A DNA stretch of 64,000 bases, from assembly GCA_008632985.1 (NCBI GenBank), contig QPGO01000032.1:183330-247329 (forward strand), written 5' to 3'. The DNA is from Psammoneis japonica (taxonomy: Eukaryota). Below the pieces are notes generated by a model. The model had not been told where the DNA came from. It worked only from the letters and a program-made list of their open reading frames with translations, and ran no database searches. The position numbers were made by a program, and so were the translations under genes. Positions 6,958-63,532 of this stretch are shown here, piece after piece. Every line of letters begins with the position of its first letter. Positions within the stretch are counted from its first letter, which is position 1.

Positions 6958-7538
6958 GGTGAACGTGATGCGGTATTGGAGAAAGTTCCGAGTCCAAACA
7001 TTCTGAAGCATTTTTACCGAGGCTTGCCGTCGCGGGGAAGTTTTGAAAGTCCTACGCGACTTGTTGTTGAAGGATCTGCAATACATATATATTGCGGCAT
7101 AAACTTTGATCCTCTTGGCTGCCGCGAATTGTTTGTTTCATACCCTCTCTACTAGCCGCTCGATACAGTTCCGTGAAGACGCATCTTGGATTTTAGGAAC
7201 GAGCAATAAATAATGTGGGTACGAGAGATATGTAATTGTTGTTGTGAAACAGCCCATGAGGGATGGGTTGAATGCGACTGCATGATGGGATCAACATTGC
7301 GGACATGCTGCCACTTGAAATATCATAATTTTCCCCTTTTCTATAATTCAATTCCTGTTTATAAATATGAAATTGAATATTTTCTTATATTCATTTTGTT
7401 TCGCGCGGCCGTCATAGTACAGAGTACATACAGGATCCCACATCCCAATAGCACGCACAAAAACGTTATTATTTTTATTATATTATGGATATGAGATAGA
7501 CCTTGACGCATCACCCATTGTGTTTGTTGTTTGAGACC

Positions 7539-10500: not shown

Positions 10501-10637
10501 GTTCAAAAACCCCTCTTCAGTCAGTCAAAGAGGAAGAATGTGAAGCGGAAGACGATCGACGGCCTGGGTCAAACACTGAAGGTGGTCGTCGGACAAAGCG
10601 AAGAGACAAGCCAAAGAAGAGGTCTCGAGTGGCATAA
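7539..10637 (+). CDS. Double-stranded RNA-binding domain protein (2 dsRBDs) with a C-terminal GNAT-like region
   Basis: Single long ORF, first ATG at 7539. dsRBD1 is KSGVTALHEFCAKKQLPPPNF…GRGLNKTSAKQDAARSALQKL. dsRBD2 ends GRTKREAKHAASAKVLALLFP. The C-terminal LRRATPHDVDWVKRL…PLGCAVLTLGFSMEKGRLLRVSEI resembles an acetyltransferase fold. Confidence 0.8.
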   Translation: MAEPEEQEQPPPVAEVDTNVGRSVVSDDTLTVAQNDEFMNSSMPDASSSQQHQQPNVHPHQLLNAPQPYPFPAMPNQVPDPMMMAQFYEAQMRDHAAAYASAAAGAAWAAAQIACSSASGLPPSLPPAPFFNGPPIPPPIFNGPSSVPPVFHGPPPLPPNDPSMYHAQPQPPPHRTEASASEERKPKRHQSMPDEYCSEAPPPWQPSFSGPGRPVYAPMGMPDASSPQQEGGGDQWTGPGIGEARHMHRGNSFDRNEGSTKRGRRWLRDNAGSSGGEGGRGGKRSGRSSDGSTGSGGYYNKKQQRRSSEDINLLSLVGKSGVTALHEFCAKKQLPPPNFCNVESSSPDKFCIAALIGKHERGRGRGLNKTSAKQDAARSALQKLVSGIKFDNNGNVLHVPRPPPFRTPKNEALEDLAPNLASQLAIGTHEQDGEKDDSNKKRHRGTTNNSQMTGRSRQKPKRRWVAYPGTSTTSEDEDKSDDTAARGSSEWSYLLHAMWQIRDDIPEPPSYTYEFFPVDRSFSCTASLLVKRSDNSTSDESELKDRSGDIDSTVNSEHEARLLPEKEEGKGVDAETDGKRPGTDKAAEKLSATDYGRTKREAKHAASAKVLALLFPNCPDMSEVKAVADAAREEYAARRALKLQQNSLYFTNNSRKNQDGEHDAAANYPDFSFALPSPSDPPLPEFLAEQLRPTLKTCGTAQGSKLPSPMGSPLCGVTAGIAKVAALSLSEAVEENITKQEDRTGSGDASRDAIAHKSNRMKQLEDEVDAALHVMNELDETGKSLAEELPEDQVGRTVLRRATPHDVDWVKRLFSKAHDSRRKKIWPRDRYQPVSPLSLLSRDTDQNGADTHAQLSGLLWGSMSVVLLLCRAIALDDEAPLGCAVLTLGFSMEKGRLLRVSEIAHETHLPEERFIECLETFSQNMKCSLERQSLEAPSSKEDKTPKKSFNRWYLRSIVESHVENDTRIKTMKYDKVVENASLLSASASSKTPLQSVKEEECEAEDDRRPGSNTEGGRRTKRRDKPKKRSRVA

Positions 10638-14215: not shown

Positions 14216-16968
14216 GATGGATCTACGTGCTGTGGTCTGTTTTCTGGAAGCTCGTAATTTTTGTAAAATAACCCGGGTCCTTCACACTAAACACTCGCGT
14301 TCGCCAAAAATAAAATTTCGGCGACAGGTCGAACTTTGTCCACTTGAGGGGGTCGGGGGTCATCATTTGCTGCTTTTTTTTTTGGCTCGAATCAGACCGA
14401 ACAGCTCGTGATTTGCACGATTTTTCCTGACCTTCACTGTGGTGAAAACATCAAGCCACAAGTCTGTGACAGAGGTGGTCCATCTGTCAACTCTTGTTCA
14501 TTTCATGTTCATTGTGTGTGTCATTGAGGGCGGAGGACAACCGCTGCATTTCTGAGCTGTGCCAGCATTGCCGTCATTGTCGCGACGCTTCAATCGTGGT
14601 GCCTGATGTTCTTGTTTTCATGCATGATTGGGGGTAAATGCAAAAACAGTTTTTGCACCAAAAAATGACCACCACAAATGTCGTCCTTGTTCAAACGCCA
14701 CATGGCAGCTCTGGGACAAACACGGGGATGCCCCCCCACTGCCCAAAAAGACACCATGACATGATGCACAAACAGCTGTTGCTTGTGAGCATGTGCAATT
14801 TTTGCCTTGTTGTCAACTGCAAATGTGCCCACAGCCAGTCAAATGCCAAGAACACACCCCAGATGCAGGTGGGTGGGAATCCGTGTGACATTGGGCCCAC
14901 AGAATTTTGCGTGTGAGCTTCGCAATGAAATCATTGGGCAATGACAGTGTCAATGATCACCAACAGAAAATGAGGCAATTTTTCACATGCACAAACTCGT
15001 CCATGACTGAAGTGCATCATTTTTCACTTTGTCAGGCACGTTCTTCAGACATTAAAGAATGCAACTGGCACATTGTTGTCCCCACAAATTTGTCAATTGA
15101 AGCATCTGGGGCTTTGCAAAACAGCGAGTCTGGAACAATTTTTTGGAGTGTCACATGCAGAAATGTGCATGCAAAAATGCAATGGATGACAAAAAACAAT
15201 CATGTCACACATTGGTGCTGCAAGCTCCCATCCAGGCTGGAGTGTGTCTGCCACTTGTCGGGCATGGACCCACAAGTGGCATTTGGAGCTTTGAACATGC
15301 AGAACTTGTGCCAGTGCAACAGCCCTGAGAAGGGCTTGATGAGTGCACAAGAGTGCTTGGGGGGTCTCTGAGGCAGCAGGTCAAAACAATGCAGTGAAGT
15401 GTGGGAAATGCAAGCCATTTTGAGCTGGACCAAAGCACGCAGATTTGTCCTCAACATCATCTGCTGAGTGCTTGCAACAGGCACGCTGGTCACACTGCAC
15501 AAAGCAAGCACCATCAGCCACAACAAAATGCAAAACCAAGCAACCAGTGTCAGCACAACAACAATGGGTGGCTTTGTCCATCATTCAGCATTTTGCCACT
15601 CTTTGCATGCAGAAGTGTTTGGATCATTGACGGTGAGTTCAAGAAGTCAAAAGCAAGTGGTCCATTGCCCAAATTGGCTGGGGAGAAAACTGGCTCTGGC
15701 TCTGGTGGCTCTTTGCTTTTGTTTGTTTCACACAGACATGCTGCACAGCAGAAAGAAGCTTGGCAAGGTGTGTTGTCATCTCATGCTGGGCACTGGCACA
15801 TTTGATTGCCTTGTGTCCTCCACCTGCTTTTTTTGACATGGGGCCCACTTCAGTGTGAGTGGGCCGGACCGGCGCAGTTTCCCCAAGGCAACATGCAAAT
15901 GTGCACAATGCAGGGACTCCTCTTTTCTTCTCAAATGAGCCTTGGCAGACCCACCTGCAATCTGTGCCTGTCCATTTTCAATTTGTAGTCTGCTCATTTT
16001 CAATTTTTGATGGGCCAAAGCACAGGCAAAATGAGTGGAAACATGGCTCCATGCAGCACCCTGGACCTTTGGGGCTGGTGCCACCATTGCAGGACTTCCA
16101 CTCATGGGTTGATGGTTGAGATTTTGGCACATTTTCCCCCTTGTTGGCCGTTGTGCATCATCCTGCTGACTCTGTCTCCTTTTTGTTTTCGCGTGGTGCG
16201 TGTTCCAGCTGCTTGACAACTGAAGTTTTTGATGTGTTCCAGCGGCACACAAACCAAAGTGTGCACAAAAACAAAACATTTACATGATTTTCATGGGGTC
16301 TCTGACTTGCAAACAAGCTTTCGCCACCAAAATCACAGATTCGTCCAAATTTTTGTGTTTTGCAACACTGACAAGACCAGCGTCAGGGTTGCAACATCAT
16401 TGCTTTTTTGCACAGCCAATGTTTTTTCATTGCGTCAAACAAGTTGCAACACAGTGGGTGATTTTGCCAAATTTTTTGATGATTCACGCTGCACTGCGGT
16501 TTGGAGGTTGACACAAAATGTTTCTGTGTTTGCACATTTTGCAGCAGTGGCCCACTTGCACAAAATTCTCTGCAAAAAGAGAAAAAATTTTGCAACATGT
16601 GTCCCATGAAGACTTCAACACCGGTGAAAAATTTGCTCAAATGTGCACACTGTGATTGAACACAAAAGCCAGAGTGCACATGCAACATTTTGTGTGTTGT
16701 TGCCCAAAGAGCAGCTGTGTGCAACATGATGTCGAAAGTCAAACGGCCACAGGTGCTGAGTTTCAGGCCTCCAAATAGAGATGCGCCACAACGCTTTGTC
16801 ATTTTTTTTGTGCATTGGAGGTGCTGTTGGTGCGGCAACATTGCAGACTGCAAGTCGCCGCACGACCGTCAGGAGGAAAGGGGTCCCGGCTTTTTGCAAG
16901 TGTTCGCGAATTCTCGAGCAGCAGACAGACAAATCATGCTCAGCTTGTTGCTTGTTGCACCAGTGCTG
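14216..16968. mobile_element. Degenerate TE insertion (TpA-depleted), host of a MITE copy
   Basis: TA is nearly absent from ~14330 to 16968 between two normal genes. No intact ORF. The left end is uncertain and the family was not identified. Confidence 0.7.
14848..15248 (-). mobile_element. ~400-bp MITE, most degenerate copy (subfamily A)
   Basis: Collinear with 28103-28498 (gtgggaatccgtgtgacattgggccc…aaaatgaggcaattt…aacagcgagtctgg…). Termini are eroded and the left boundary is approximate. Confidence 0.85.
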
Positions 16969-23877: not shown

Positions 23878-26734
23878 CGTCTATCTAAGGACCGGCTAAA
23901 TGCGCTCGTCGAAACCAGGTTTTGCGCACAAAAATGCGCTGAAACTGGCTACGTGTTTCTGCGTAGATACAGTACTGATCGATGACGTCACAGCCCCCCT
24001 CCAACACTGCGCGCGGTCTGCGCGCTGCCTCGAGCTTCAAGAACCGTAACCGCACAAATCCATTGCCCGTGGCCAGACCCTGCGCGAGATTCTTGAGATC
24101 CTCATGTTTGAACGACTGCACAGCAAAGACCATCACTTGCTTGAGTAGGCAATAGCTGCAAATGTATGTAATAGTGAGTTTTATGGCTGTCAATTGTTTC
24201 TAATTACTTCTGTGCAGTTGCTAGCTCATCACGAGCAGGTTGCAACGTTTCGGTGTGACACCACGTAGAATCCTGGTACGTTTCTACGTACAAGCGCATT
24301 TTTGCGCATTTAGCGCAAAATGAGCCCCAAAAACTCAAAAATGCGCACTGCGCATTTAGCCGGTCCCTAGCGGCGTCTGATGCTGTCTTTCTTCTGTCAT
24401 CCGCTGCGCGATTTGTGCATTTTTTTTATTTTGTGTCCCCTTCGACCCAAAAGCCAAAAGCGTGCAAGTAATCATAAAAATCGTTTCCTAAATTTTCTTC
24501 TCGACTCCTTCAGGGGCAGAGATTGCTGGAAGTCTTGGCGGCACTCTCCTCGTACCCAAGTTTAGATGGAGACGGACTGACTCGAAGCAACCCCGCTCGA
24601 TGACTGTGACCCCTCGCTTGATCCATGTCGGAAGTGGGGAACTTCCGACTCAAGATGACCCAGTCTAGTCTTCCGACTGTGACCGGTCAAACTTCGGTCT
24701 TCGCTTGTCTCACTTTTCCAGCTTTGTTGGAACAGGAACCCTGATCAATGTGACTGGATCACACAAGCTCGGAAAAGCATTGTTCTTTTTAGTCTCTCTC
24801 ATCATGTCAGATTTCTTTGCCTCGGGTGTCTCGGATGATGCGTTCGTTGATTTGGCTCGTCAACTGGAGTCTGATGTTGTCTCACCATTCTCGTCAAGCT
24901 CTCTGGTGGCTCCCTCTCCTCAGGCTTGCCCTTCTGGGGCTGCGCAACAGGGGGGGGTCACGGGGCTCAAATCCCCGAGGTGCAAGCGAGGACATTTTGG
25001 GGGGTCATGGTCATCCCCAATCGGACATTGACAGGGCGGAGTCAGGGGAAGTCATTTCCCACCCTCCAGGAACTCACGTTTTGGAAGGAGACGCATCCTG
25101 CCCATTTCAGAGGGAAGCTTGCTCGACCCGAGCAGGCTTCTTTGGGTGGGACTTGGCGGGTGACATCAGGGGCACGCTCGAGACGGAGAAGGAAGGCACG
25201 TCTTCTTCGTCCTCGCATGTGTCTCGTTGTCAAATCACCTGGCTGGAGACTGCTGGGGCACCTTGGTGCTTGGGGATCAAGGGCAGAGGAGCCACTTTCT
25301 GCCTCAAGAAGGCAAGTGAGTGCAATGTGAAGCACAAGGGCAGAAGGATGAACATCCTGGTGGCGGGTGTGATGGTGATCCTCAAGTCCCCAGATGCGGG
25401 GTTTTGTCAACCCACCCTGGACGGAAGGAGCATGTCTGGGGAGGTGCCAGTTAAGTGGGAATCCGAGTCGGATGCGCTGGCCGGGTGGCGGCAAAAGTTT
25501 TTGGTCCTGGGCAATGGTGAGCCCTTTTTCACCAAGGATGAGGTGGAACCCACTCTGAAGGAGCATGAAAGGGCAGCCGATTTCAAGACACCGGCTCGCA
25601 AGCAGTGGCCAGAACCCACCTCACCTCACGAAGACGCCATCCTGGAGAGGTTCATCCCACATGAAAAACAAATGCTCTCTGCGCCGGTGCAATTCCTGGT
25701 GGCAAACAAGAGTCCGTCCGCATTGGCTCGGGTGGTGCAATCGACCGAGGACAGATTGAGGCAAGCCGGGGAGGTGCCAGCCGAACTGGGTGACAAAGCT
25801 GGGAAGCGTTTCCACGCAATGGAGTCCATGGTTGACATTCTCAGCCGAAAACTGGATCAACTCGATGCGTCTCTCGGCACACCGACCCAGGGATTTGACA
25901 AGGCTCTCCTTGCCCCCATGCTTTGGGGCACCCTGGCGAACGTTGCATCTTGGGAAACAGGAACCCAATCCAGCAAGTGGAAACGGGGTGGAGGAACCAA
26001 TCCAACAATCTCATGAGAACGTTCAACGAGAGGTTTCAAGCGATGCAAGATGGGATGGGATCTGTGCCCAGTCGCACGGATCTGGAAAACCTGAAAAGAA
26101 ACATGCTTTGGGTTTGCACTCAGTTGGCTTCAAAGGTCAGGTCATTGGAATCCCAGGGAGCTGTGGGGTTCACTCCACCAGGTGAGTCACATGACCAAGG
26201 TTCTGTGGATGTGCGCCTCACTCGACTGGATTGGGCAGTGAGTGAGTCACGCACTAAATTGGACAAGTCAGCTGTCAAGTTCTTGGGGTTGGTGCATCGT
26301 CCTACGAGGAGTGCCAGGCTTGGATGACACAACATTTCCCGTCAAGGGCGCGTGGATGTTTAACCGACATTGTCCTGCTCTTGGATCGGATCAAAGGAAT
26401 CAAGCCAATGGCCCTGCATCACTTTCTGTCTCAGTGGGCCAAGCAAATGAGCATGAACATTGCGGCCAAGGAAGATGCGCGAACTTTGGCAGGCTTCCAA
26501 TGCCACATGCCTCGGATTTTCGACTCGGGATCTGCAAAGTTGGCCCAGACCTTGGGGTTGCATCCTTCCTGCTTGGACAGGGTCGAGACTTACGAACATT
26601 GGTCCTCGGGGAACATGGGAACGAAGCACTTCATTGAGGGGAAGATCGCCTCGATGGAAAATGACATCATGGAGGACATCAACCAATGCATTAGACCGGG
26701 AATGTTTGAGAGCCAGGCAGTGTGGGATGCTTTG

Positions 26735-27130
26735 GATGCGTTCCAGCCCTGGGTGGGAGCTTGCAGTGCTGACGTGTGACACAAACAATTTTTGTCATCC
26801 GTCGCATGTTTCGCACGTACATTTCCACGTGTGACATTTAAAAAAAATTGTCCAGACTTGCTGTTTTGCGAAGCCCCAGACGTTTTACATGACGCATTTA
26901 TAGAAACAACAATGCGCCAGCTACATTCTTCAATGTCTGAAGAATGTAACTGGCCAAGTAAAAATCGATGCACTTCAATCATGTGCGAGTTTGTGCGTTC
27001 GCAAAATTGCCTCATTTTCTGTTGGCAAACATTGATGTTCTAATTGCCGCACAATTTTACTGCGGAGCTCGCACGTAGAATTCTGCGGGCCCAATGTCAC
27101 ACAGATTCCCACCCATGCCTGGAACGCGTC
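26735..27130 (+). mobile_element. ~400-bp MITE (subfamily A), TSD TTTG
   Basis: GATGCGTTCCAG…CTGGAACGCGTC flanked by TTTG on both sides. Removing it restores the host gag frame (QAVWDAL|SKSVAFLRAL). Confidence 0.95.
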
Positions 27131-28102
27131 TTTGTCTAAATCGGTGGCTTTCCTGCGGGCGCTGATTCAGTTTGTCGACTCAACTTGTGCTTCCCTCACG
27201 GATCTGAGCAAGTTCTCAAAGAAGCAAGCATGGTCCTTGACCTCCAAATTGACACATCACATCTTTGAGGACATTCACAAGGCGCACTCGGGGGTTTTTA
27301 CCTCCATTTCAAGCACGGACCCAGACGCAGTGTGCAGCAAAATTTTGTGGGCGGTGTTTTGAACCCAGGACATTGTGGCCGAGCACACATCCATGGGGTT
27401 TGCCGATCACCCCTCGATGGCGTCGGAACATGTCAAGTTTCTCACGACTAGTTCCAGTTTTGAAGTGGTTGTGGACTTGCAATCCACGGTTCTGACGTTG
27501 ACGGAGAAGGCCAAAAACGCTGGCTCTGAGGCAAAATCAGCCCAGGCTCGTGGGGATGCGGCTCATGTGGAACTGGGAAAATTGCGGACGGAGGTGAAGG
27601 ACCTGACTCGCCGTCTGAAGGCTCTTGAGAACAAGAAGTGAAGCTCATGGGGAACGGAGGAACTGCAGGAGGGTCTGGTTTTGATTGATGGGCCCACTGA
27701 CCTGAGGCATGTCATGCGGGGCCGCAAAGCCTTCTCATTTCAAGGAGCTTGTTTGGTTCTTGCTTCCGGTCCCCCAATTTGGCTTTTGTCTCTTAGACCA
27801 AAGGAATGGCCTACATTGTGCCACTGCTCCAATGATGCCTGCACTTCCCACTGGAGCCCCCTGTCAGCAGAGATGTTCCAGAGCCAGTTGGATGCCTCCT
27901 TGGCTTGGGTCTCTTGGTCAAGTGTGGGACACCTCGCCGCCCAGGTTGGCCTTGTGTTCGTGTTGGGCCCACCCTCTTTCCTTGAATCCGCTGCACATGT
28001 CGTCCAGTCTGCACCCTTGATTGTGATCCCCGTGGAAAAGTTTCGAGACGTAGCCTCCTTGGACTGCACCAGTTCCGCCGTCGGGATGTCACACATGCAG
28101 TG

Positions 28103-28498
28103 GATGCGTTCCAAATGCAGGTGGGAATCCGTGTGACATTGGGCCCGTAGACTTCTACGTGCGAGCTCCGCAGTAAAATTGTGTGGCAATTAAAATGTCA
28201 ATGATCTCCAACAGAAAATGAGGCAATTTTGCGAACGCACAAACTCGCCCATGATTGAAGCACATCATTTTTTACTTGGCCAGTTGCATTCTTCAGACAT
28301 TGAAGAATGTAACTGGCGCATCATTGTTTCTATAAATTTGTTGTGTAAAACGTCTGGGGCTTCGCAAAACAGCGAGTCTGGACAATTTTTTTTAAATGTC
28401 ACACGTAGAAAGCTACGTGCGAAACATGCGACGGATGATAAAAATTGTTTGTGTCACACGTCAGTGCTACGAGCTCCCACCTAGGGCTGGAACGCGTT
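28103..28498 (-). mobile_element. ~400-bp MITE (subfamily A), TSD AGTG/GGTG
   Basis: Reverse-complement copy of 26735-27130 inside the retrotransposon. One TSD mismatch. Confidence 0.93.
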
Positions 28499-31400
28499 GG
28501 TGGCAGGTGGCGTTACTTCCTTCCATGCAACACTGTTCTGGCAAGGGGCACCCGCTCCGTTTTTTGACGGAGGCCTGTGGTGGTCCATCGGGCATGTCAT
28601 TGATTGCAAGCTTCCCGGGCCGCCATTGCCCCAACACCCCCGTGATGATTTTCACACGGAGTCTGACCATCTTAATCCTCAGTTCTTGAACCGACCGGTC
28701 GTGTGCCCATCTTGTCAGTCTGCAACAGGTTGGGTCTCCCGCACTCTCTCTGTGGATGAAATGTTGGCGGCCTGGGATTTACCTTTGAGGTTCCGCATGC
28801 CTCAGGTGCACCAGGCCTTCGAGCAGAGTTTTCTGCTTGTCCCGTTGAACCTCCTCACTCTGTTTGTGGATGCGTTCATTGACAAAGCCCCCCGGGACTC
28901 GTCGCAGCCTGGGCATGTGGGGGGCGGGGACACTGCACCTGCAGCTCCGGTTTGTGGGGCTGGAACTTGGCCACCTGGCCTTTGGTGGTGTTCACCACAC
29001 ACTTGGATTGATGTGTCCCTCACAACTGCAAAAGCTGCCAAGGGCGATGCAGCTGCCCCTCCATTTTGTTTGTGGGACAAGTGGATTGCTTTGCTTTTCC
29101 CTGTCTTTAGAAAGGTTTTACCTGCCCTGCGGAACTCAACCCATCAATGGTGGCGGAGGCGGACTCTCCGGTCCTTTCTGTCATGCCTGCGCCGGGTGTG
29201 TGGCCCGACGTGGGGCGCCATGTTGGCCACACAATGTCAGCATTTTAGGGACGCTACAGGGCGTCTTCAGGGGGGGTTTGCCGCCACCCTCCACTCCCAT
29301 CTTTGCCACTTGATGCACACCTTGGGGTGGATGTGTCAACACAAGTGTTGGCCAGCACATGGTGGAACTGGGACAGTGGTTTGTCCCTTTTATTTTGGCG
29401 GTGGCCCACTCCGGAGCAGCGGGTTTGCGCTCAGGATGGGATCCAGATCTTTGTCAACAGTCCTCTCCCTTGCAATCATCGCTGCCAGCAAATTCGGGGT
29501 TCAGAGCATGAGATCCTCAGGATGGCGGACAAGATGCAGAAAGTCCGAGACCAAGGATGCATCCGTCGGGGTAGGGTGATCAGCTTGACAGATCATTTCT
29601 GGGTCCCAAAGACCGTCCAAGTGGAAGCCCAGAATGGACGGTTGGTGGAAATCGTCGACGATGTACGGATGGTTTGTGGTGGCACTTTTTCTGGATTGAA
29701 TGATGCCTTGTGGGCACCCTCCTTTTTCTTGCCCACCCCCGCTTTGGTTCTGGGCTGCATGACCCATTCTACGTTCTTGGTGGACCTCGATCTCGGCGAT
29801 GTGTTCTTGAATTTTTTCATGGATCCCAGCATCCGGCCACATGCAGGAATTGACTTAACCCCGCTCAAGCCGTGCCTCCCGTCGCCGGAGCCAGTCTTGG
29901 GGGGTAAGCTCTGGTTCGAACGATGGAACCACTTGTTCATGGGGATGCGTCCCAGCCCTTGCTTGGCAGTGCGGGCATTCCATTGGGCCAACGAGATTGC
30001 CCGGGGCGATCCACAATGTGCTTCCAACATCATGGGGCATGACAAGCTTGTCCAAACTTGCCGGGTGACCCAAATTTCCGGATGGAAAACCCGTTTGTCA
30101 TGAAGTGGAATTCACGTTGGAAGGAAATTGCTGGGGACATCAAAACATTTGTGGACGACTTGCGAGGAATGGGGTGAGCGAGGAATCCGCATGGCAGGTG
30201 GCTCACCAAATGGCCTCACGGTTGCAGTGTCTTGGTCTGCAGAATGCGGCCCGGAAGGTGCGCCCCCCCTCTCAAGTCGAACTGGAGCTTGGGCGGGCGC
30301 CATCTTCAGAGTTGTCGATGGGGACGTTGCTCAGTCTGTGGCTCAGGCCAAATGGAACAAAGCCAAGGTCATCATTGCCAATTTGCTGGGCCACTGCGCA
30401 AATTGACCTGAAGACTTTCTCCCCAGTTTTTTGATTTCAAGGATCTAGAGCGGAAACGGGGTTCTCTGGCACATCTGGCTGTGACTTGCTCTTTCCCAAC
30501 ACCATTCTTGAAAGGTGTCCACTTGACCCTTGACTCGTGGTGGCCAAATCGAAAAAAGGATGGCTGGGCAATGACGGGAAAGGAGTTTGTGAGTTGGATT
30601 CATCATCTTGCTGAGAAGCGGGGCCTGGACCCATCAGAGGTTGCGGAGGGGCTAAGGGATCAGCCGCCACCTCCCCAGCTTACGGCAGTCCTGTGTCTGT
30701 TCATGGACTCAACAGCCATGTCCCGCATTGTGGAGTCGCCGACCCCTTCTGTGGTGATCATCAGGTCGTCAAAAATCATCTCAGTCCTCTGCGGTTTTGG
30801 TGATGCATCCGGAAAAGACCTTGGCACGTCCCTGGAAGCATCGGATGGAACACTTGTCTTTTGGATCGGTGTGTGGGGCGACGACGAACTGGGGAACTCT
30901 TCGAATTAGAAGGAATTATTCAATGCGGTCGATGCCATCCAGGAACTTGGAGAGGAGGGCGAATTGACTGGCGCGTGCTTGTTCTTTTTTACAGACAACT
31001 CGGTTGCTGAGTTGGCTTGGCACAAGGGTGCCTCTTCCAGCCCCCTCCTGTTTGAGCAAGTCATTCGGCTGAAATCGTTAGAGGCCAAGCATGGGATTAG
31101 GCCACATCTCACACACGTCTCGGGAGGTCGGATGACAGCTCAGGGCATGGACGGAGTCTCTAGGGGAGTCTTGTCCGAAGGTGTTGTGAATGGAGCCAAG
31201 ATGTTGTTGTTTGCACCTCTTTGTCTTTGAGCCACTGCTCGGTCTCCCACTCTTTTTGCGTGGGTTCAGTCTTGGGCTGGCACCCCACCCCCGGAGCTGC
31301 TGACCCCCTTGGAGTGGCATCAGAAGGGACATGACATTGCGGGGTGGAGTGCCCAGATCACGAAGCAATCGAAATGCCTTGTTTCAAGTCAGGCACTTGG

Positions 31401-34400
31401 GTTTGGGCCCCGCCCCCAGCTGTGGCGAGGGCAGCCCTGGAAGAGCTCCGCATCGCTAGGATCAAACGCCAGACATCATTTCACATGTTCATCTGCCCAC
31501 ACTTGATGACACCGGAGTGGCAGAAGCAGTTGTACAAGGCGGCGGATCTTGTGTTCACCGTTCCGGCTGGAGCAAGACCTTTCTGGCCAGGTGACATGTT
31601 TGAGCCATTGCTCATCGGCCTTCTTTTTCCGTTCGTTTCCTGCAGTCCTTGGCAGCTTTGGGGAACCCCAAAAATGTGTGCCATGGACCGGTCCTTGCGA
31701 CGAGTGTGGCCGGACACTACGGTGGACATAAGGCATGTTCTGCGCCAATTTTGTGCACAATGCAGGAATCTGGCCGGCATGTCAGAAGGTGTGGTGTCCA
31801 GGGTGCTGCACTTCAAGAGAAAGCGTGACATTCCATCCAGGAGGGACCCCATCGGATGACCCTCAAAACGACGATGAGCAAACTCTTGGGGCTGACCGCC
31901 CTTGGTTGGACGACAACGCGTGATGTCGGAAGCCGCAGGATAAAAACAAATTCGTGCGGGCTTGGGCAGGAGATCATCTCACGGTGGTGTTTGAGCACGA
32001 CTCCTGTGTCTTTCACAAGCCACACCAGAGGGAACCCGCACCATCATTCCCTTGAGACAAGGTCGCCCTGGCTTGCATCCGACAGGTGATCCTGGATGCC
32101 TTTTGGAGCAGGGAGTCTACAACGGTCAAGGCAAACGCGGCGAGAGTCGGCCGGGGCCTGGCCTTGTCCGAATGTTTGGGCCTGACGGGCCCTTGCCTGG
32201 AACCAGGTCTGCTCCCGCCCTGTGATCACTGTGGGCACAAGGTTGCGATGCAGATGGTCTTGGCATTGACGGCTGCAGGGAAGCACTCGGAATCACACAC
32301 TCAGTTCGATGCGATCAGGAAATTACGCACCGCGTGTTCCAATCAGGTGCACGCTTCTGCCCAGGCTAATTCACGTGCTTCAGCGTTGGGTGACTTGGAA
32401 GGAAAACAGCATCTCCGGATGTGTGAGGACCCGTGTGCTTTGCTGTGGTTCCAATGGTTTATGACCAGGTGCAAGAGACGGATGGGCCAAGACTGGGGGC
32501 CCGACAGGGTGACATCAGTGGACGTCATGCAACACCTCTTACCTCGGGTCAAAGAGAAGGCTCTTTGAGCCCCAGGAGAGGCGGACAGATTCACGTGCCT
32601 CTCCTGCGGATTGCACTTTGTGGCCAGCTACATCTTGTCCCTGCGGGGCCCAGAAGGTTTGCTTGTGGACTTGGGGGCGATGGCAAAGCATCTTTCAAGA
32701 CACACAGATTGTGTTGTGGTCCCTCTTTTGGGGCGAGTGAAGGGAGAACATGGGGAGCGGCAGCACCTTCTTCCAAGTGTCAATGTGACCAGCTCAGGGA
32801 TCAACCTTCGATTTTGGGTAGAGACGGCAGTCTCACTACACTGGGGTCATTGGCGAATGCACGGACCAGCCATGTCGGATGTGGACAGTCAAGTCTTGTC
32901 CACAAAAGAGCTTGACACTTTTCTGCATGAAGTTCTGGGAGACATCTATGATGATCACCCAAGCTCATTCGCAGCTGACATCACCTCTCTTGCTGACACA
33001 CAGGACAAACATGACGTGAGCCGGTCATTCCAGAGGGGATCTGACTCTCGTGCTGTTGCTCAAGAGGCATTGGAAGATGACATTGACGTCGTCAACCATT
33101 GGAAAAAGAAGGAGAGGTCGGGGGCGGCTTGACCCACCCACAAAATGCAGCAACACTGTGCTGACATCACCCTTCTTTTGCCCTCTTTCCTGCGTTGCAC
33201 CAAGGCCATGTGATTCGGGATGATCGCAAGTCCTCGGTGACGTTGGGCCCCCGGAGAGCAGTCCCATCTTCCTGCTCTCTGGGTTCTCATTGTTGGTGGC
33301 CACTGCCCAGGATTCTCATCGGGGGGATCAGAGCTCGACCCATCTCATCCGGCCTCGGGAGTCAATGAGACGAGGTCAAAGACAACTGAGTGGCACAAGA
33401 CCTTCGACGGCTTTAGTTTTCGCGCGGGAAAACTTGGTCTGGCGTGTCTTTGTTTGAGTTGGCCACTTGCTCTCTAGTCTGCACCCAACGTCGCGAAATG
33501 CCAAAGGGAACAACACCAGAGTTTGGTCCTCAAAAACGCCCGAGGTGCTGGCACTGCATCGGTTTTCGGAAGAGCCCCTGCACTGCTGCAGGACCCTGTG
33601 GAGGGTTTGGATTTTCCCATCCCCCCTTGTGCGGAGCAGAGCTCACACGGAAAGCTTTGCTCATGAGTCTCCCAAGCATCCCAATGATTTGTTGCTTCTT
33701 GTGGTTCTTGACTGCTGTAGGATCATCCGAGATCCAGTCCGAAGCGGCGGTTCACAGAGTCTGTGCTCGGATCCTGCCTGAACACGATTGCAACACAGAA
33801 TGGGGGGGGCTGGCTGGCTTGTGGTGGAGTGGCCTGGTTGTCCCATTCTTGTACCGGCACGCTGCATTTTCAGCCAATCATGTCATGTCTTCAGTGAATT
33901 GTGACTCAGCAATCCCCAATTATGACAATGCAACACTTAAGAACAATTTTGTCTTGAAGCCATTTATGACTCAGCAACGTTTTAAGACCACTCGCTAAAC
34001 GGACAGACAGAAAAGACACTGCATGCATGCAGCAGGAAAAATCATCACGCGCACTTGCCACCCTCGAACCGTCGCAGCACAATGGCGACCAGCTCCGTTC
34101 ATGAATCGACCATCACTGTGACGATGCGAGGGTTGACAGCATTGACACAAGGCACAAAGTCTGTGTCGAGCATGACGGTTGCATTTTTTTGTTGGTGTCT
34201 CCTAAATTTCTTTTGTTTCCATTGTGTTTAAACAGAGCATGTGTTTTGAGTTTTGTTTTCTGCCGCCGACAAGATTGCTGCTAACAATGAACCACAAGGA
34301 CTGTGAGGATGCACCAAAATCATTAAGACAAGGCAATGTGAACACATCGAGCATGATGGGGTTGTTTCTTTGATGGCACCTTCTACATTTCTGTTGTTTC

Positions 34401-35973
34401 TATTCCTTTTAATTGGACAGTGTTTTGCTTTGTTTTCGGCCAACGGCATTGGTTAATGCAATCAACCACAAGTGCCACGAGGGCACACCAAAAGCATTGA
34501 CACAAGGCAATGGAAATGTGTTGAGTGTCATGGGTCTGTTTCTTTGTTGTCGTGTTCTCAATTTTGCTGTTTCCACTCCTTTGTTTCTGCTGCAGGGCTG
34601 CGACAGGCCACCGCTGTCCGTGCCATTGATGTTGGTGCGGCCCGGCAATGGTTGGTGTGGTGGACTGGTGTGGTTGTACAAGTGCAAACTGTTTGTTGCC
34701 CCACCGTGTTGGATCCTAATCCTGAATTAATGCATCTGCGCTGGGAAGTGGTGATGTGATGTGCATCAACACAAACAGAAAAAAGAACAAAACAAAAAGA
34801 CACCAAGAACACCTTACTTTCCTTGGTTGCACCACAAGGTGTGAGCGACCCGCCCCCCGATGACCATTTTTGACATGATTTTTTCTTCCCTCACAGCAGC
34901 ATTCTTCTTCTTTGACCTTTCGTCTCTTTGTAGCTGGAGTGACAGTGGATGGCAGCACAGGAGCAGATGCTGCAAAACTTGCCGTCCCAAGAGAAACGGG
35001 TTGGCAGCAGGTTGAACATGGCATTGACAACGCAACAGCAGGTGGGCCCAAAGGTTGCTGCAATGACATTGGCAAATTTGTCACAGGAATGGGCAGCAGA
35101 GGCAGCAATGGCAGAGCTGGTGCCGGCATGGGGAGGATTGGGGCAGGCGGCACGGAGCTCAATTCTCAAAGTTGCAGATCATTCGTGTTTCTTGGGGAAG
35201 CTGCTCTTGAGGAGGAGTGTCTTCAAACACAGAATGACACTCTTGCTCATCAAAGTCGACACCAAACTCAGCAGCGTCAAAGTCACCAGCGTCATTGTTC
35301 ACAGGTGCCGTTTCATTTGGCACCACTGCAGATGCCGCCGACTGCTCACGTGAAATGGCTTGTAGGATGTGAGGAAGAGGCATCGGATTTGCAGCACATT
35401 TGGGGCATTGGCAGCGACTGTTGGTTGGATGGGGTGGACATTGTGCTCCGTTTCAAAAATTGACCACGGCATTGAGGGTGTCAGAGTCCAGGAGGCCGAG
35501 CGCATGTGGAGTTGGCAATTCCCAGCAAGGGCTGCGCGTGCATCACAATTGGGTGATGCACGTGCCCACTGGCAAGGCTTGCTAAGAACACGGCCAGACC
35601 AAAAGAACCCCCCCGGCAGATTCATCACAACCTCCTTGGGGCAGTCCTGGTTTTACCCTTCACTTAAATGCGGCCTTTTTGGTGCATGCAAGATGCCAAC
35701 TGTGACGGCAGAAGCTGTGAACTTTGAAGGACCGATGACCGCAGGCTGTTGATCCTGGTCTGCAGCGTAGGACGGATGACCCCACTGCCTGCAAATGCCA
35801 GCACCAGACCGCCGCTGCCCTTCGTCTGATTGCAGCTGTTGCCATGCTTTAGATCGTTGCTTGGCTGGCGTCCGTGATGAGCAAATTAGCAGACCTGATT
35901 TGCAGCTCCCATGACCGACGGCATGGCGTCAATCTTGAGACAAATGCCCACGATCCCGTTGCATGATCAGCCA

Positions 35974-36414
35974 TCATCTGCCGGACAATGACACTGTGGG
36001 GGTTGTTGCTCCACCCTGGCAGTCCACGCTGATGGTGTGGAAATTCACGTTTAGCGTCTCGAGGCTTTTCCCATTGCCTCCCGTGGGGCTCACCATGCTG
36101 AAACCGGCAATGATCGCATTGGTGAACTTGAACGTTGCATGAAGTCAATTCTTGTGGGTCATTTCAATCACTGTGAGTGGTGTGTTCCTGCCCTCGGCTA
36201 GATGCAAGCCGAGCTCGGGAGTGGCCCGGTCGGGTTCCTTGGCAAAGGAGAGGTCGGCAATGGAAACCCCGCCAGCAGAGCCCGAGCCAGCTGATGCACT
36301 TACATCAGGGTCTGATTTGGGAATGGTGAAGGAAACCAGGTCGATCCAGTTAAGATGTTTCTTGTCCTTGCTGCTGCCCGGGATTGCGTCAATTTTGAGA
36401 AAAGTGCCCACAAT
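35974..36414 (-). pseudogene. Type VI secretion Hcp (tail-tube)-like domain with one internal TGA (36145-36147)
   Basis: IVGTFLKIDAIPGSSKDKKHLNWIDLVSF…SAGSGSAGGVSIADLSFAKEPDRATPELGLHLAEGRNTPLTVIEMTHKN*LHATFKFTNAIIAGFSMVSPTGGNGKSLETLNVNFHTISVDCQGG follows the Hcp1 pattern from end to end. Confidence 0.8.
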
Positions 36415-37089
36415 TGCATGGTGGTGAGGCTGCTCCCTTGCACAGTTGCGACAAATCCAGGAGCTTCCCACCAGCCCCTGGGGGCAAAGGCTCCAAGTCA
36501 TTGAGCAGGTCCCCGCGATCACTCATCACGACGCCTGCAGTTGGCACATGGGCGGACAAAGCCGTCCGATGCGCATCCATGTCAGCGTGCCAGAACTCCA
36601 GCACCGTCCGTGAATTTTGTTGTTTGTGGACATTCACACAAATGCAATGGAAATTTTTGTCATTCGTGACATCAAGTTTGTAACGGTTGTCCGTTGAATT
36701 TAGTCTTGTTTGGCGAAGAACACATGGGCTGTGGAGATTTGAAAAAATGGTTGCACTCGGCCTGTCCTTCCATGCATTTGCAAAACTTGTGTGGGATTCC
36801 ACGTGCACAACATTGCGTGGGGCGATGCTGAAATGGCAGTTGCGCCAATCAGCTCATTCAAATTTGCGTGAGGCCAACGCAAACGGCACTTTCACGATGA
36901 TGATGATGCAGCGGCGGCGGCGTCTTCAGTGCATTCCCGCAGCCACACCACAGCACATGCTTCTGCATGTGACAATGTGTGTTGGAAAGTTTGAAAGAGA
37001 TCTGTCTCATTGGCGGCGTCTCTGAAGGTGTTGTTTTCAACATGAATTTATGATTTGTGGACTGGGCTGTCATGGCAGGGCTGAATGTG

Positions 37090-41179: not shown

Positions 41180-44100
41180 GCCCATGGCGGGAAGCCTCCA
41201 CTGCCGTCTCCTGGGACCAGGATCGAGAAGGTGGCAAGACGCGTTCCAGCTCTGGGTGGGACCTCCAGTGCTGAACTGTGACATCAACGGTTTTTTGGAT
41301 CGTGCCGCATGTCGCGCATGGATGGCTGCATGTGATGTTCTACGAAATTGTTTCACACTTCCTATTTTGCGAAGCCAAAGGCTTTCCATTTTCAACATTG
41401 TGACAATGAAAACATGCTGGGTGTGTTCTTAATGTCTGTAGAATGCCCATGCAAACTGTTGTTCATGTGCTACAAGTGTGAAGGAGGAGATGCATTCATA
41501 AAATTGCCTCTTTTTCTGTTGTGATCATTTGCATTTTAATTGATCAATGATTTTAACACAGAGCTCGCACGCAGAAGTCTGCGGGCCCAATGTCACAGGG
41601 AGTCCCACCTGGGATTGGAACCTGTCGCAACCGGGATGGCTGCGGTCGTGGCCGGGATGCTTGCCTCAATGTTGTGGCACGCAAGGTTGCCACAGAGCCA
41701 AGAGATTTTCTCTCTCCGCAAACCAAGGCATTCCTGGAGAGAGTCGACTTTGTCACAGATTCATCGGATCTCATGCCATCTCCCAAAGCCGAGCAACTCG
41801 TTGCCTCGGTTTGTGACGACTTTGTGAACCAACGTGCCAAACGAAGCATCACGGGAAAAGATTCCTGCCCTGCTCCCAATGCTGTGCAAACAGAGCAAGC
41901 CGAAAAGGATGGTGCACCCCGCTCTGCATCCAAGACAGTTTCGGCTTCTGCCTCTGCCAACGATTCGAGCGTGACTCTCGAGTCGCACCCGGGAGATTTG
42001 TTCCCATCCTTCGCAGCTGCCCGACATTGTCTTGGTCCCGACACTAAAGCCGACCGCAATGACAACAATGTCAAGAAGAAGAACAATCCATCAATTCCTG
42101 TGGTCAGCAAGTTCAGCTGCAAAAATCCAGGTTGTCACTTCAAAGCAAACATTGTTGCTTCTCCGTCGACCAGCCCCTGCAAGTTGCAAGTGATCTGTGG
42201 CCACAACGGCCACCATCTCCAAACTTGGCGGGACCACATTCTCTCCAAAGGTTCACGTGGTCTTCCTCCATTGGCGAAACTGCACATGCAGCTCATGATG
42301 GAAAATGACCCTAACGCTCCACCAAAGGACATGCAGAGAAAAACTGTGGATCACTTTTCATCATTGGAAGATGCATCTGCATCCAAGTTGTTCGAAACGC
42401 AGGAGCTCCGAGACAAGGTTTCTAACAAGATTTGCCACTGCATCACACAGAGATGACAAGAGGCAGCAACACCAGCACACCCGGCATCAGAAATCTCTGT
42501 GGATGACGGCAAATGGTCTGGCACAAAAATCTCGTACACACAAGACTTGGTTGCACATTGTCGCAAATGGTGTTTGCAGATTCCAGAGGGTTTTGATGCG
42601 GAGCCCGTTTCTTCTGAAGTCCACATGAAAGAAGGTGAAATGGCTGCACGAGAGGGGTGTAAAAGGCAAGCGCAAGAGCAAAAATGGGGTGCCACACACG
42701 GACATGTTCTGCTTGCTCCAACCAGATGAGTTGCCCTGCAAAATCAAGCAACGGTTGACGGAACTGCAATCCAAGTTGGAAGAAAGGCACCAAAGAAGAA
42801 AAGGCCCAAAGTGTCCATTCCTTAAAGCAAGGGACAACATGGTGGCATTTTCCTCTCTTGGGCTCTTGCAAAACATCTGTGATTGTCGCGAACTGGAGTG
42901 CCGTGTGGTTGGCACAATGGACGGAACTCATGGTGTTGTTTGCAATGACTTCATTCTCATCGTATTTGGCGTGAGCAATTTTTCAAAATGAGAGAAAACC
43001 AGAAAGCATTGCTGCTCAAGCACGTTCAAGCTAATCTGCTGCTGCTTGACCACCGGAGAGCATGAAGAAGGTGCGCTGTTGATGTTCTTGTCCTTGCAAA
43101 AGGCAGCGGCGGACTTGTTTGGCACAATCGACTTGGAGTTTGCAGGCAGACTTTGTTTGGATCACTCTCGTGCTTTCTCGAATGCTTTTAAACTGTTGCA
43201 CCCGACAATCCCCGAGGGACATGCTGTCCTCACATTCTCCGCAAGTTCCGCACTGATCACCACTGGAAAGCAAATGGACAGCCCAGAAATGCCTGAAGGA
43301 TGCAACGTTCCTGTCGAGAGTGGCCATCCATGACGTGAGGATGCTCCATGGTGCAAAACTCCAGAATTGTTTCATTCAATGTCTGGGATGGTTCTTGATT
43401 CTTGGAGGAGGGCAGGGGAAACCAAATTGGCTGATGTCTTTGCAGAACAGCACATCAATGACAAAGACTTTGCCAACTGGCGATGCACGTCTTTTGGAGC
43501 CCGGTTTGGTTCCACAGAACAACTCTCACAAGAGGTGCATCTGCCATTGTCACAAACATTTCGTTTCTAAACTTGGTTGTTTGCTCACACTGCACTGCTC
43601 ACTGCAGGATGAATCTCGAGATGAAGGGTTCGCAATCATCAATGGCTTGATTCCCCTGGGCATCACCCTGTCGCGTGCGCTGAATGTCACCCTTCCATGA
43701 TGGTCCACACCCACACACTAGAGAGATCCACTGTTTCCAGGAATTGGAGGATGTTGGACGAAGACAAAACGCTGCCAACAATGTGTTGGTTGACATCAAC
43801 CGAATGGATCCAAAACAAGACATTGCTCCGTATGAAGGCGGTGCCTTGTCAACACTCAAGACTGCGTTGGGGATGCAATTGACAAAGTTCGAATCATGGA
43901 CCACCACAGCGCGTTAAAAGGGTTCCCGCATGGAGAAGCGGCTTTGTCCCACAAGTCGCTCCACAAACTGACCACTGGATTTTGCAAAGTGACGGTGAGA
44001 GAGTTGGCCGATGGCACAAAACTCTATGTTGGAGACTGCGAGGAATTTTACAAAACAATGAAGTGTCCGCATGCTGCCATCCTTCAACATGCCGACGTCA

Positions 44101-44399: not shown

Positions 44400-47300
44400 G
44401 CACACTGCATTCATGTCCAACAAAGCCCACCTTGGGAGAGTTGCTGCCTTTGTGTTGTTTGTCAACATGGAGTGCAGGGTTGTCTGTGCTCGTGTCACTG
44501 TCAGTGTGGTGGAGCTTGAGAGGTTGGCATGCCGGTGGAAGAGATGGAACTGAAAACGGAAGCACTGGCAACAAATGCATTTCACAATCAAATGATTTGA
44601 GCCACAGACCCAACATTGAAATTAGTTCAAACAGTTGCCGACAAATCCATTCACATCCTTGCCACCACCAGAGGTTGCAGCACCAATCCTTTTTCCTCCG
44701 ACAAAACGCACATGTGCTGTGGGTTCTTTCTGGCAACTGAATCATGACACACAAGGGCCACTGCTTTCATGCTGGAAATGTTTTGCTTTCGGTTGGCAAG
44801 CGGCAACAGCAGCACAAACTCCCTTGTGCAACGAAGACACTTCCACAACCAAGAACGCCCGTAGCCGAAGTTGGTGTCAAACAGCAAGTGCAACAAAAAA
44901 GCTGTTGATGCGTCAGCTTTGCTGTTGTGCGAAGGCTGGTGTTTGCTTTTCAATCCAGCTGGAGGCAGACAATGACGATGGACATCATCCATGCCGTCAA
45001 CAACAATGCTGCGCCGAACAGCATAGGCAACCGCCATCCTCGGTGCACTTGGTCTTCATCGCCGAGCGCAATTCCTTGCTGCTCTTCATTCCAAGGCAAT
45101 CAACTGCCATGAAACTCATGACATCTGGCAATGGAAGATGGTGGTTTTTGTTCAGCAAAGTCTGAACCACAGCAACGGGATCAAACATGGTTTTGTCGGA
45201 GTGCAACTTTGATTGTTCCAATTTTGATCGTTCCTTGTCAGATGTCTTGGCTTCAACTGTAAACTCCAAGTTCTTCCTTGTGGCAACCTTGCAACAAACG
45301 AACATGATTTGACAGACGAATTGAAGGCAGTGCACCATGATGGATGACAGTGGTTGTCAGATGCACCCGGTTGGGCACAGTTCTTGCGGACATGCTTGGC
45401 AGCCAGTGCCAAGTTTGAAGGGTGGTGAACGATCATTGGAACTTTTCCTGCACCGCACTTGCACTTAAACAGATCGCACCCTTCGATGTGACTGTCACTG
45501 CCACCTGCGACAGTGTTGTGACTGTCCTTGGGGAACAAACACAGACACTCCTCAGCCTCTAGCCACGCAATGCGCAGTGCCGCCGACACGGCTGCAACTG
45601 TCTGACACAGTTGATCCTTTTGTTCGATGTTGATGCCAAGCTGGACGTGTTCCAGCTCTGGGTGTGACCTCGCACTGCTGAACTGTGACACAATTGTTTT
45701 TTGTCATCCGTCGCATGTTTCGCACGCACATTTCTACGTGTTCCATTGTAAAAAATTGTTCCACACTGCCTGTTTTGCGAAGCCAAAGGCTTTCTGTTGT
45801 CTGCACTTGTGTCAATAAAAATGCGCTGGGTGTGTTCTTTAATGTCTAAAGAACACACCCGGGCATGCTGCAAAGAATGTGCTTCAAGTGTGGAGGAGGA
45901 GACACGTTCGCAAAATTGCCTCTTTTTCTGTTGGCGATCATTCATGTGTCCATTGCTTGACAATTTTACTGCGGAGCTCGCACGTGGAATTCTGCGGGCC
46001 CAATGTCACAAAAAGTCCCACCTGGGACTGGAACCCGTCGCTGCCTGAACTTCTTTGTGGATTGTTCGCTGCCTGGCAGATGCAAATCAACAATTCCGAG
46101 ATCATGCTGCTTGTTGTTGCCGACAAAAGTGAGAATTAACTTCTGTGTTTTCAACTTGTCACTGGAGTGAAACGAATTGGAGGCTTCCTTCACCAACTTT
46201 TGATGCTTTGTTGACGTTGTCTCTTTGCCGCGATGCAATGACATGATTTGAAAAAAGCTGCAAATGGATCTGTCATGGGTTGTGTCCAAAACCAGTTGGC
46301 TGTTGCTGCTTTGGTGTCGAATGCCGCCCACGCTGGCAGATCCATCTGGCTGGGCATTTCCGTCAACACTGGGACAGTGCACTCCCAGCCACCGTCGAAA
46401 ACCATTGGAAAATCCATTTGGCAACGGATTTGATTTCGTTTTCCTCCATGCATCCAAATGCTCAGTTCCAAAATGATGAAAATGTTCAATGTTGTTCGTT
46501 TGAGCAGTGGCAGCAACACAAGTGTCTGCAAGCAGGCATTCGGACATTCGTTCACGATGCTCGTTGTGCAAATGACTTGACATCTTGTGGACGAGGTCAA
46601 ACACCAGGGACAAGCCAACCAGTGGATTCAAGTGGATGCGGTCCCTGCGGCACACAGCGCCAGGAGGACAATGGGTGTCGGGTGCAATTTCTCGATGCGG
46701 CAACGGCACCTTCTGGTGACGATCGACTGACAAACGGACAGCCTTGTCCATCTCCCACATTCGATGGCAGCAGTTTGCATTTGAGCCCTTCCAAAAGGCA
46801 GTGACCGGAAGTGACACATTTGCGCGCAACACTTCACAGTGGAAATGTGTCCACACACTCATCAGCGGAGTCCACTTCTTGCAGCCAAAGCCGTCAATGT
46901 GGTGGAGCAGGTGCGGAGGTGGGTTGATGCTTCCGTCGAACTTGTGTGTCATTGGAACAAAAGACATGCACTCGTTGAAGACATCTTCATGCATTTGTCT
47001 GGCAAATTCGTTCAGATGTTTGGGACACTGTGATTGTCAATGATGGGAACTCAGGGAAAAGCTGCCGCCCAAACATCCTCAAATGACTGACCAACCTTGG
47101 CCATTGGAGGAGCATGTCGCTTGGTGCCCTTGTTGAACTGTGGCACCGATGCGCCATTCTCTCCTCTCACTCCATTGTGGTTGCCACCGGATCCAACCGC
47201 AACTTCACGATTGCCTCGCTCTCCGGTGACAGGGACCTGATGTAGACCTGGAGACCCTGGTTTCTCTCCAAGGCAGAAATCCCGCCACACTTCCTGCAGT

Positions 47301-63500: not shown

Positions 63501-63532
63501 CTGATTGAATGGCGGCCATTTGGGGTCCACCA

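Follow-up and report, generated by a model that had tools for sequence, protein, structure and literature searches.

TpA-restricted mutation and the loss of conserved tyrosines in a dead diatom retrotransposon

The retrotransposon copy and its family

The stretch of DNA considered here (the window) is 64,000 nucleotides (nt) from the diatom Psammoneis japonica (assembly GCA_008632985.1, contig QPGO01000032.1, positions 183,330 to 247,329). It contains a dead copy of a diatom tyrosine-recombinase (YR) retrotransposon, in which codons at conserved tyrosine positions encode cysteine or histidine. The underlying change is the conversion of TpA to TpG or CpA, and it is not confined to tyrosine codons. 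The parts of the element are these, in positions of the window (ORF, open reading frame; MITE, miniature inverted-repeat transposable element):

About 24546 to 33775, + strand: YR (DIRS/Ngaro-type) retrotransposon copy, 3'-truncated, aligning at 77-90% with 11 other genomic copies
24546 to 24791, + strand: terminal repeat A1, matching A1 and A2 of other copies
24804 to 27641, + strand: ORF1, putative gag by position, broken and MITE-interrupted, defined by reading frames and a TGA stop at 27639
26738 to 27130, no strand assigned: MITE insertion 1, not in other copies
27690 to 28900 (approximate limits), + strand: pol N-terminal domain, predicted C5 cytosine-methyltransferase fold (from the model of a relative), split by MITE insertion 2
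28103 to 28495, no strand assigned: MITE insertion 2, not in other copies, splitting the pol N-terminal domain
29300 to 31840, + strand: reverse transcriptase, RNase H and C-terminal domain of pol, presumed from characteristic motifs and a weak RVT_1 match in one relative
31786 to 33213, + strand: tyrosine recombinase ORF, from the predicted Cre-like fold of an intact relative and the family profile
33157 to 33159, + strand: TGT, a Cys codon where the recombinase would probably have its catalytic Tyr, judged from conserved position and Cre-like fold
33325 to 33710, + strand: internal repeat B1, matching B1 and B2 of other copies

The family has split direct repeats in an A-coding-B-A-B arrangement, with both repeat pairs present in 14 of the 18 copies fetched. 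The window copy ends after B1, without the second A and B repeats found in other copies, and no long direct repeat was detected in window positions 24000-36500. The presence of a tyrosine recombinase ORF instead of a DDE integrase is shared with the DIRS superfamily. The repeat arrangement and the ORF1-pol-recombinase order are like those of Ngaro/PAT-type YR retrotransposons, as far as the accessible parts of the published descriptions go (PMC4157794, PMC3783388, PMC5890265). The closest named relatives are from other diatoms, Fragilaria crotonensis, Cylindrotheca fusiformis and Cyclotella meneghiniana. The two MITE insertions form a 393-nt inverted pair that is 90% complementary, lying in opposite orientation within the element. 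This MITE of approximately 395 nt occurs six times in the window (26738-27130, 28103-28495, 14870-15241, 41237-41627, 45644-46040 and 63532-63935).

Few of these domains are visible to profile searches. Pfam has no match within the element among 27 window ORFs and no significant match to ORF1, and at its cut-offs it recognizes neither the reverse transcriptase, the RNase H nor the recombinase. Searches of the relatives against Pfam, PHROGs and the sequences of solved structures returned only a weak RVT_1 match in one pol relative (E 0.028) and one unrelated match. The reverse transcriptase and RNase H labels come from motifs that we take to be diagnostic, together with this RVT_1 match. For the recombinase, the structure predicted from an intact relative (pLDDT 90) resembles Cre (E 1.4e-4) and XerH in fold, and the window ORF scores 516 bits against the family profile. 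The model of the pol N-terminus of a relative (pLDDT 86.6) matches DNMT2, DNMT3 and M.HhaI (best E 1.7e-8), whereas Pfam DNA_methylase has no match there. The catalytic Pro-Cys of the C5-methyltransferase fold is not conserved in a 20-row alignment. Such a predicted fold is unlike Ngaro, one criterion for which is the lack of a methyltransferase (PMC4157794). It is like SymbioDIRS-Dnmt3, which has a DNMT fold inside pol together with A-B-A-B repeats, although the element described here differs from SymbioDIRS-Dnmt3 in having no conserved catalytic Pro-Cys (PMC5890265). The same N-terminus, which Pfam misses, is also found at two other loci (L032:5480-6322 and L053:1612-2400) and is conserved in metagenome relatives. 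At the other end of pol, a conserved domain of approximately 160 residues lies 3' of RNase H (31330-31840), the same place as the Dam-like domain of DIRS elements; no Pfam or PHROGs match to a Dam-like domain was found in the pol C-terminal domain.

The window copy is dead. Its pol carries stops at 30907 (TAG) and 31228 (TGA) and apparent indels of 1-2 nt near 30054, 30171, 30281, 30426 and 31350. Its recombinase has premature TGA codons at 32053 and 33130, and conserved Arg codons are altered at 33031 and 33097. Some of this may not be real. Contigs from X1, a public run assembled separately and possibly from the same sample, lack the indels near 30054, 30171 and 30281 and the TAG at 30907. 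Three of the five apparent pol frameshifts and this TAG may therefore be assembly errors or allele differences. Another copy (L021, G000:C41:171097-181096) has many single-base indels relative to the window copy, which suggests local assembly errors.

Tyrosine columns and the TpA change

The initial annotation listed ten motifs, said that a Cys or His in each is usually Tyr, and proposed that TAY codons had become TGY or CAY. All ten motifs are present on the + strand at the positions named. The conserved residues were defined with 151 recombinase proteins (one fused protein excluded) and 119 pol proteins (from the best 120 of 253), whose profiles were aligned frame by frame, with X at stops, to 19 copies in the genome, that of the window and 18 others. 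Start positions and the residues of the relatives at the affected column are:

29555, + strand: GCIRRG, Y in 90 of 93
29585, + strand: LTDHFWVPK, F 53 and Y 36; Tyr in 4 genome copies
29666, + strand: RMVCGG, Y in 89 of 105
29834, + strand: RPHAGID, Y 51 and F 23
29951, + strand: PSPCLAV, Y in 96 of 117
30222, + strand: LQCLG, Y in 68 of 118 (H in 9 of 118)
30790, + strand: CGFGDASG, Y in 95 of 118
31018, + strand: WHKGASSS, Y in 57 of 113 (H 16)
33145, + strand: MQQHCAD (TGT at 33157-33159), Y in 89 of 94
33190, + strand: LRCTKAM, Y in 62 of 91

Tyr is the commonest residue in the relatives at nine of the ten positions, with Phe leading at LTDH. In pol, Cys or His codons occupy Tyr or Tyr/Phe columns at 29558, 29594, 29675, 29840, 29960, 30228, 30487, 30790 and 31021, and in the recombinase they occupy Tyr columns at 32236, 32614, 33010, 33157 and 33196, where a single Tyr (TAC at 32629) is kept. 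A single transition that changes the amino acid encoded by TAY can yield nothing but Cys or His, and the type of residue therefore proves nothing by itself. What matters is the rate. At columns conserved in at least 70% of relatives, the window copy retains Tyr at none of seven (5 C, 1 H, 1 F) and other residues at 268 of 318 (Fisher p=4e-6). Over 19 genome copies, which share ancestry so that the pooled counts are not independent, Tyr is retained in 23 of 130 cases and other residues in 5076 of 5900. The lost Tyr was replaced by C (61), H (31), F (14) or R (1). Trp, whose codon contains neither TA nor CG, is retained in 444 of 467. At the 17 columns with at least 50% Tyr the window copy has 12 C/H, 4 F and 1 Tyr. 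The four F columns are a family trait, because F is found there in 11-12 of 12 close copies.

The most conserved Tyr column of all (89 of 94 relatives) lies C-terminal to a conserved Arg-Trp. Its position, together with the predicted Cre-like fold, indicates that the Tyr expected at 33157 is probably the recombinase nucleophile. The proposal that this residue had been hit holds far beyond the window copy. Tyr is present in only one of 26 genome copies and lost in the other 25 (1 Tyr, 12 C and 5 H in 18 aligned copies; 0 Tyr, 7 C and 1 L, the last in a doubtful alignment, in 8 further copies). C or H likewise occupies the position of the probable nucleophile in four database recombinases (P0039, P0005, P0083 and P0138). 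The composition of P0039, whose 459 residues include 3 Tyr, 20 Cys and 23 His, suggests that TpA-type mutation has acted in its source genome.

What if Cys or His were simply the native state of these columns? The relatives argue otherwise, with 764 Y, 4 C and 24 H at the 17 columns in the best 80 of 444 metagenome matches. Since the relatives carry Tyr, the direction TA to TG/CA is established independently of the MITEs, as had been claimed. Two codons are polarized directly, because a near-identical version in X1 reads TAT/TAC at 29675 and 30487 where the window reads TGT/TGC. TpA is scarce in the element. Between 29520 and 33213 there are 28 TpA against approximately 187 expected from base composition, and the observed-to-expected ratio is 0.10-0.26 in the 19 genome copies compared with 0.29-0.78 in the 80 metagenome relatives. 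Across the window it is mostly 0.02-0.3 in gene-poor blocks vs. approximately 0.45-0.8 in gene blocks. In the element copies TpA is down and CpA and TpG are up, with CpG decaying to TpG/CpA in parallel.

Five young copies (91-96% identical) reveal how narrow the change is. The per-site frequency of singleton transitions is 0.38 at TpA, 0.20 at CpG and 0.009-0.020 elsewhere. A is changed at 0.013-0.020 per site when it follows A, C or G and at 0.38 when it follows T, so A:T to G:C change is restricted to TpA. The non-TA state at a TA column is TG or CA in 177 of 182 cases. A likelihood fit to 253 TpA columns gave relative rates of 1.01 for TAT, 0.87 for TAC, 0.51 for TAG and 0.34 for TAA (p ~1e-26). 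Conversion per young copy is 64-84% for TpA vs. 7-17% for CpG loss. In two of the copies the TpA that survive show weak clustering (p=0.014 and p=0.044).

Timing is also clear. Pairs of terminal repeats within elements, compared over 8610 columns with copy L037 excluded, differ by 62 TA/TG, 47 TA/CA, 103 TG/CA doubles and 114 CG-type changes, with only 38 other transitions and 24 transversions. Relative to other transitions, the repeat pairs put TpA loss at approximately 150-350-fold and CpG loss at approximately 29-fold. These repeats should have been identical at insertion and have diverged at TpA, so the change postdates insertion. A truncated copy (L038) contains an identical 156-nt duplication (795-950 and 5862-6017, minus-strand orientation) that keeps 8 TpA and is possibly very recent. 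Sister copies tell the same story. L024 and L028 have 118 ordinary changes in common, and at 89 of 158 jointly converted TpA they have the same outcome (0.56, compared with 0.54 if independent). This near independence places conversion on the terminal branches, and in four of the five young copies those branches carry 0.1-0.35% background change alongside 65-84% TpA conversion and the loss of the probable nucleophile.

Perhaps TpA avoidance had evolved in the active lineage instead. This was rejected. The sequence ancestral to the young copies carried no fewer than 10.2 TpA per 100 codons (at least 2.9, 4.0 and 3.3 in the three codon phases), near the median of 11.5 in the 80 metagenome relatives (2.8, 4.4 and 4.3) and the 9.2 of host genes. 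Judged from these reconstructed sequences, the transposing source lineage evidently kept normal TpA and Tyr content and escaped the process.

Effects on proteins and stop codons

The initial annotation held that every Tyr codon is a target, so that elements are disabled by missense while TAA and TAG stops are erased. Each TAY does hold a TpA. However, Tyr codons are not specially chosen. In the five young copies TpA is converted in the Tyr phase at 132 of 171 sites (77%), in NTA codons at 169 of 230 (73%) and at codon junctions at 133 of 193 (69%). Synonymous TpA goes almost as fast, so the loss of Tyr is a consequence rather than a choice of target, and there is no purifying selection on Tyr after insertion. 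Tyr is lost most completely because the target lies within TAY, no synonymous change can rid a Tyr codon of TA, and TAY is the preferred sense-strand context.

Missense damage is real and includes the probable nucleophile, but the replacement of Tyr is not the main load. Among 291 replacements counted at conserved columns in 12 close copies, TpA-type changes make up 123 (58 Y>C/H, with L>P, M>V, L>S, K>E and others forming the remainder) and CpG-type changes 114. The corresponding figures for the window copy are 10 and 18 of 33. CpG decay thus damages copies as much as TpA change does.

Nor are stops generally erased. The natural stops are TGA, that of gag (27639 in the window) in 19 of 19 copies and that of the recombinase in all of the 13 copies, out of 19, that this test aligned. 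Premature stops persist, with 41 TGA, 2 TAG and 1 TAA among 44, a count that includes one called at 30409; the frame there is uncertain, and this stop is given no weight in the window copy. Among TpA contexts, TAA and TAG convert most slowly, whereas Tyr codons are the fastest sense-strand context. Only two cases of TGG to CAG were seen in 434 Trp-codon observations; these codons suggest that a TAG had appeared there and was later removed.

A probable host process and its possible enzyme

There can be little doubt about what happens to these copies: after integration, on both strands, site by site and only in repeats, TpA changes to TpG or CpA, fastest at TAT and TAC, in company with CpG decay. 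The same signature has been measured in the chlorarachniophyte Bigelowiella natans, where integrated viral DNA undergoes TpA-specific hypermutation (Mettrop et al., bioRxiv 10.64898/2026.01.13.699255). According to the accessible part of that preprint, the per-generation rate is approximately 1000-fold higher and the process is active in some lines only, TpA-poor sequences are enriched for transposon domains, and an ADAT2-type deaminase has been proposed but not proven. The two cases agree in the change itself, its presence on both strands and its restriction to mobile or foreign DNA with host genes spared. They differ, as far as that part goes, in the host (here a diatom), the target (here a multi-copy retrotransposon), the CpG decay alongside, and the depth of the loss (an observed-to-expected ratio of 0.10-0.26 here vs. 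0.45 there). The TAY preference and protein-level effect were measured here, and the rate is estimated from copies rather than mutation-accumulation lines. It is very probable that the diatom process is host-targeted and akin to that in B. natans.

How might it work? A host process would be aimed at repeat DNA, probably in CpG-methylated silent chromatin. The adenine of TpA would be deaminated to hypoxanthine and read as G, which would produce the gradual A:T to G:C change seen on either strand of integrated copies, with its highest rates at 5'-TAT and TAC. The deaminase would be a TadA/ADAT2-type zinc enzyme acting over many cell generations. TadA-derived editors make A-to-G/T-to-C changes at TA motifs, according to the parts of the reports available (PMC13225742, PMC12265680), and by analogy the strict dinucleotide limit and graded flanking preference look enzymatic and match this TA preference. 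Adenine deamination by a TadA-type enzyme is slightly favored over its alternatives. The account as a whole, in which copies die through a host TpA process with a TadA/ADAT-type deaminase as its candidate agent, is probably the best one.

The genome carries TadA-like and ADAT2-like genes (named by motif likeness), two A_deamin genes and many C5-methyltransferase matches. Reading by eye recognized no accessory domain in the two A_deamin genes. A locus on the minus strand (L047:313-1785) encodes what we take, from motif likeness, to be a zinc-deaminase domain apparently fused to a 2-oxoglutarate/Fe(II) oxygenase-like part, a candidate base modifier. Several additional C5-methyltransferase matches, in part broken, are grouped on a small number of contigs (G000 C297, C301, C10 and C28). 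Within the window, positions 7500-10637 hold a host gene of approximately 1030 residues in which the sole domain recognized is one double-stranded RNA-binding motif (Pfam dsrm, E 2.6e-11). This gene was considered as an ADAR and rejected, since Pfam finds dsrm only.

Several points weigh against this account. No enzyme has been tied to the process, and the TadA/ADAT genes found look ordinary; such genes occur universally, as editors of tRNA. Because TpA reads the same on both strands, A to G is indistinguishable from T to C on the other strand. A defensive role is weakened by the fact that CpG decay and premature stops already damage copies and that the process evidently missed the source lineage. 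In several non-sister pairs, concordance at converted sites slightly exceeds independence (up to 0.64 vs. 0.54), and therefore the context model is incomplete. The repeat-pair totals include the identical 156-nt pair of L038, which is not a terminal repeat and supplies 8 of the 57 shared TA. Finally, taking the best 80 of 444 metagenome matches favors intact relatives, and their assemblies may be collapsed consensus. No TpA-erased relative was found among these 80, although this says little about range because such assemblies collapse copies.

Of the alternatives, the one that survives best would keep the same repeat-restricted change after insertion and explain it by thymine-side chemistry (an oxidized T:G mispair), an error-prone polymerase or failed repair in silent chromatin, maybe as a by-product and not a defense. 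The ambiguity of strand just described allows it, TpA loss is co-located with CpG decay, and there is neither strand bias in the likelihood fit (ratio 1.04, p=0.64) nor any same-direction run in the five young copies, as might be left by a processive enzyme. However, transitions outside TpA and CpG (only 0.009-0.020 per site) are far rarer than those at TpA (0.38), and the dinucleotide limit and graded flanks already mentioned are a better fit to TadA. This explanation is considered unlikely.

RNA or cDNA editing during retrotransposition, by an ADAR- or APOBEC-like enzyme, is much less likely still. ADAR prefers U before A (as stated in the accessible part of bioRxiv 10.64898/2026.01.13.699255), two A_deamin genes are available, and raw counts of 233 TG vs. 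137 CA look like a strand bias. However, this apparent bias was rejected, as it is gone once flanking context is modeled, and both directions occur in every copy. Same-direction runs are absent, repeats expected to be identical at insertion diverged at TpA, and the near-identical X1 version differs at TpA both ways.

The remaining three explanations have next to no standing. Cys or His might be functional in the family, or the codons read differently by the organism, and the relatives do have His in 16 of 113 at WHKG and 9 of 118 at LQC while at one column each of the 12 close copies has His; nevertheless C and H alternate at the same column among close copies, some copies retain Tyr, TAY makes up 1.6 of every 100 codons in host genes of the window, and synonymous TpA is lost too. 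A sequencing or assembly artifact, such as a modified base miscalled at TpA, would fit the apparent single-base indel errors, three of which in the window are not in X1 contigs, but these contigs cover all 30 bins at at least 95% identity (61 of 121 at 99% or higher), and 40 listed of the 49 differences from the window, representing 38 events (12 TA-type, 17 CG-type, 2 TG/CA doubles and 7 other), include only 7 with TA for a window TG or CA. A general AT to GC bias or GC-biased gene conversion between repeats would account for the net increase in GC, yet not for the stability of A after A, C or G, the simultaneous loss of CpG toward AT or the independence of changes between copies.

The preferred account, a host process acting on TpA in integrated copies, resembles fungal repeat-induced point mutation (RIP) running in the reverse direction. 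RIP changes C:G to T:A at CpA/TpG, raises TpA and creates TAA and TAG stops. As in ascomycetes, dinucleotide-specific transitions are restricted to repeats, follow insertion and wreck transposon genes. In contrast, TpA is destroyed here and made by RIP, Tyr is removed here where RIP creates stops, and same-direction runs are absent here. APOBEC3 edits a single cDNA strand while reverse transcription is under way, giving G to A changes. It too is context-specific and strikes a residue for which recoding offers no escape (Trp in that case, Tyr in this one), whereas the change described here is A:T to G:C on both strands after integration.

What is the significance of all this? No report of such TpA hypermutation in diatoms was found in the literature searched, most subscription journals and bioRxiv supplements being beyond reach. 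The new elements are the protein-level polarization, the loss of the probable nucleophile in almost every copy and the evidence that the source lineage escaped. A process reported in 2026 for one rhizarian alga is extended to a distant lineage and to ordinary transposons. Because elements lose Tyr and gain Cys and His, the dating and annotation of diatom repeats will be biased. The clear footprint (TAT at least as fast as TAC, then TAG, then TAA, on both strands) makes the hunt for the enzyme testable. To our knowledge, natural DNA adenine deaminases that act on genomes are barely known. It is an attractive, if tentative, idea that diatoms and chlorarachniophytes share a defense DNA adenine deaminase that is guided to silenced repeats, prefers 5'-TAY, the only codon family with no TA-free alternative, and, by removing catalytic tyrosines, would sterilize new insertions very fast in evolutionary terms. 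If true, RIP and APOBEC would have an equivalent directed at adenine, one that edits DNA from A to G in nature.

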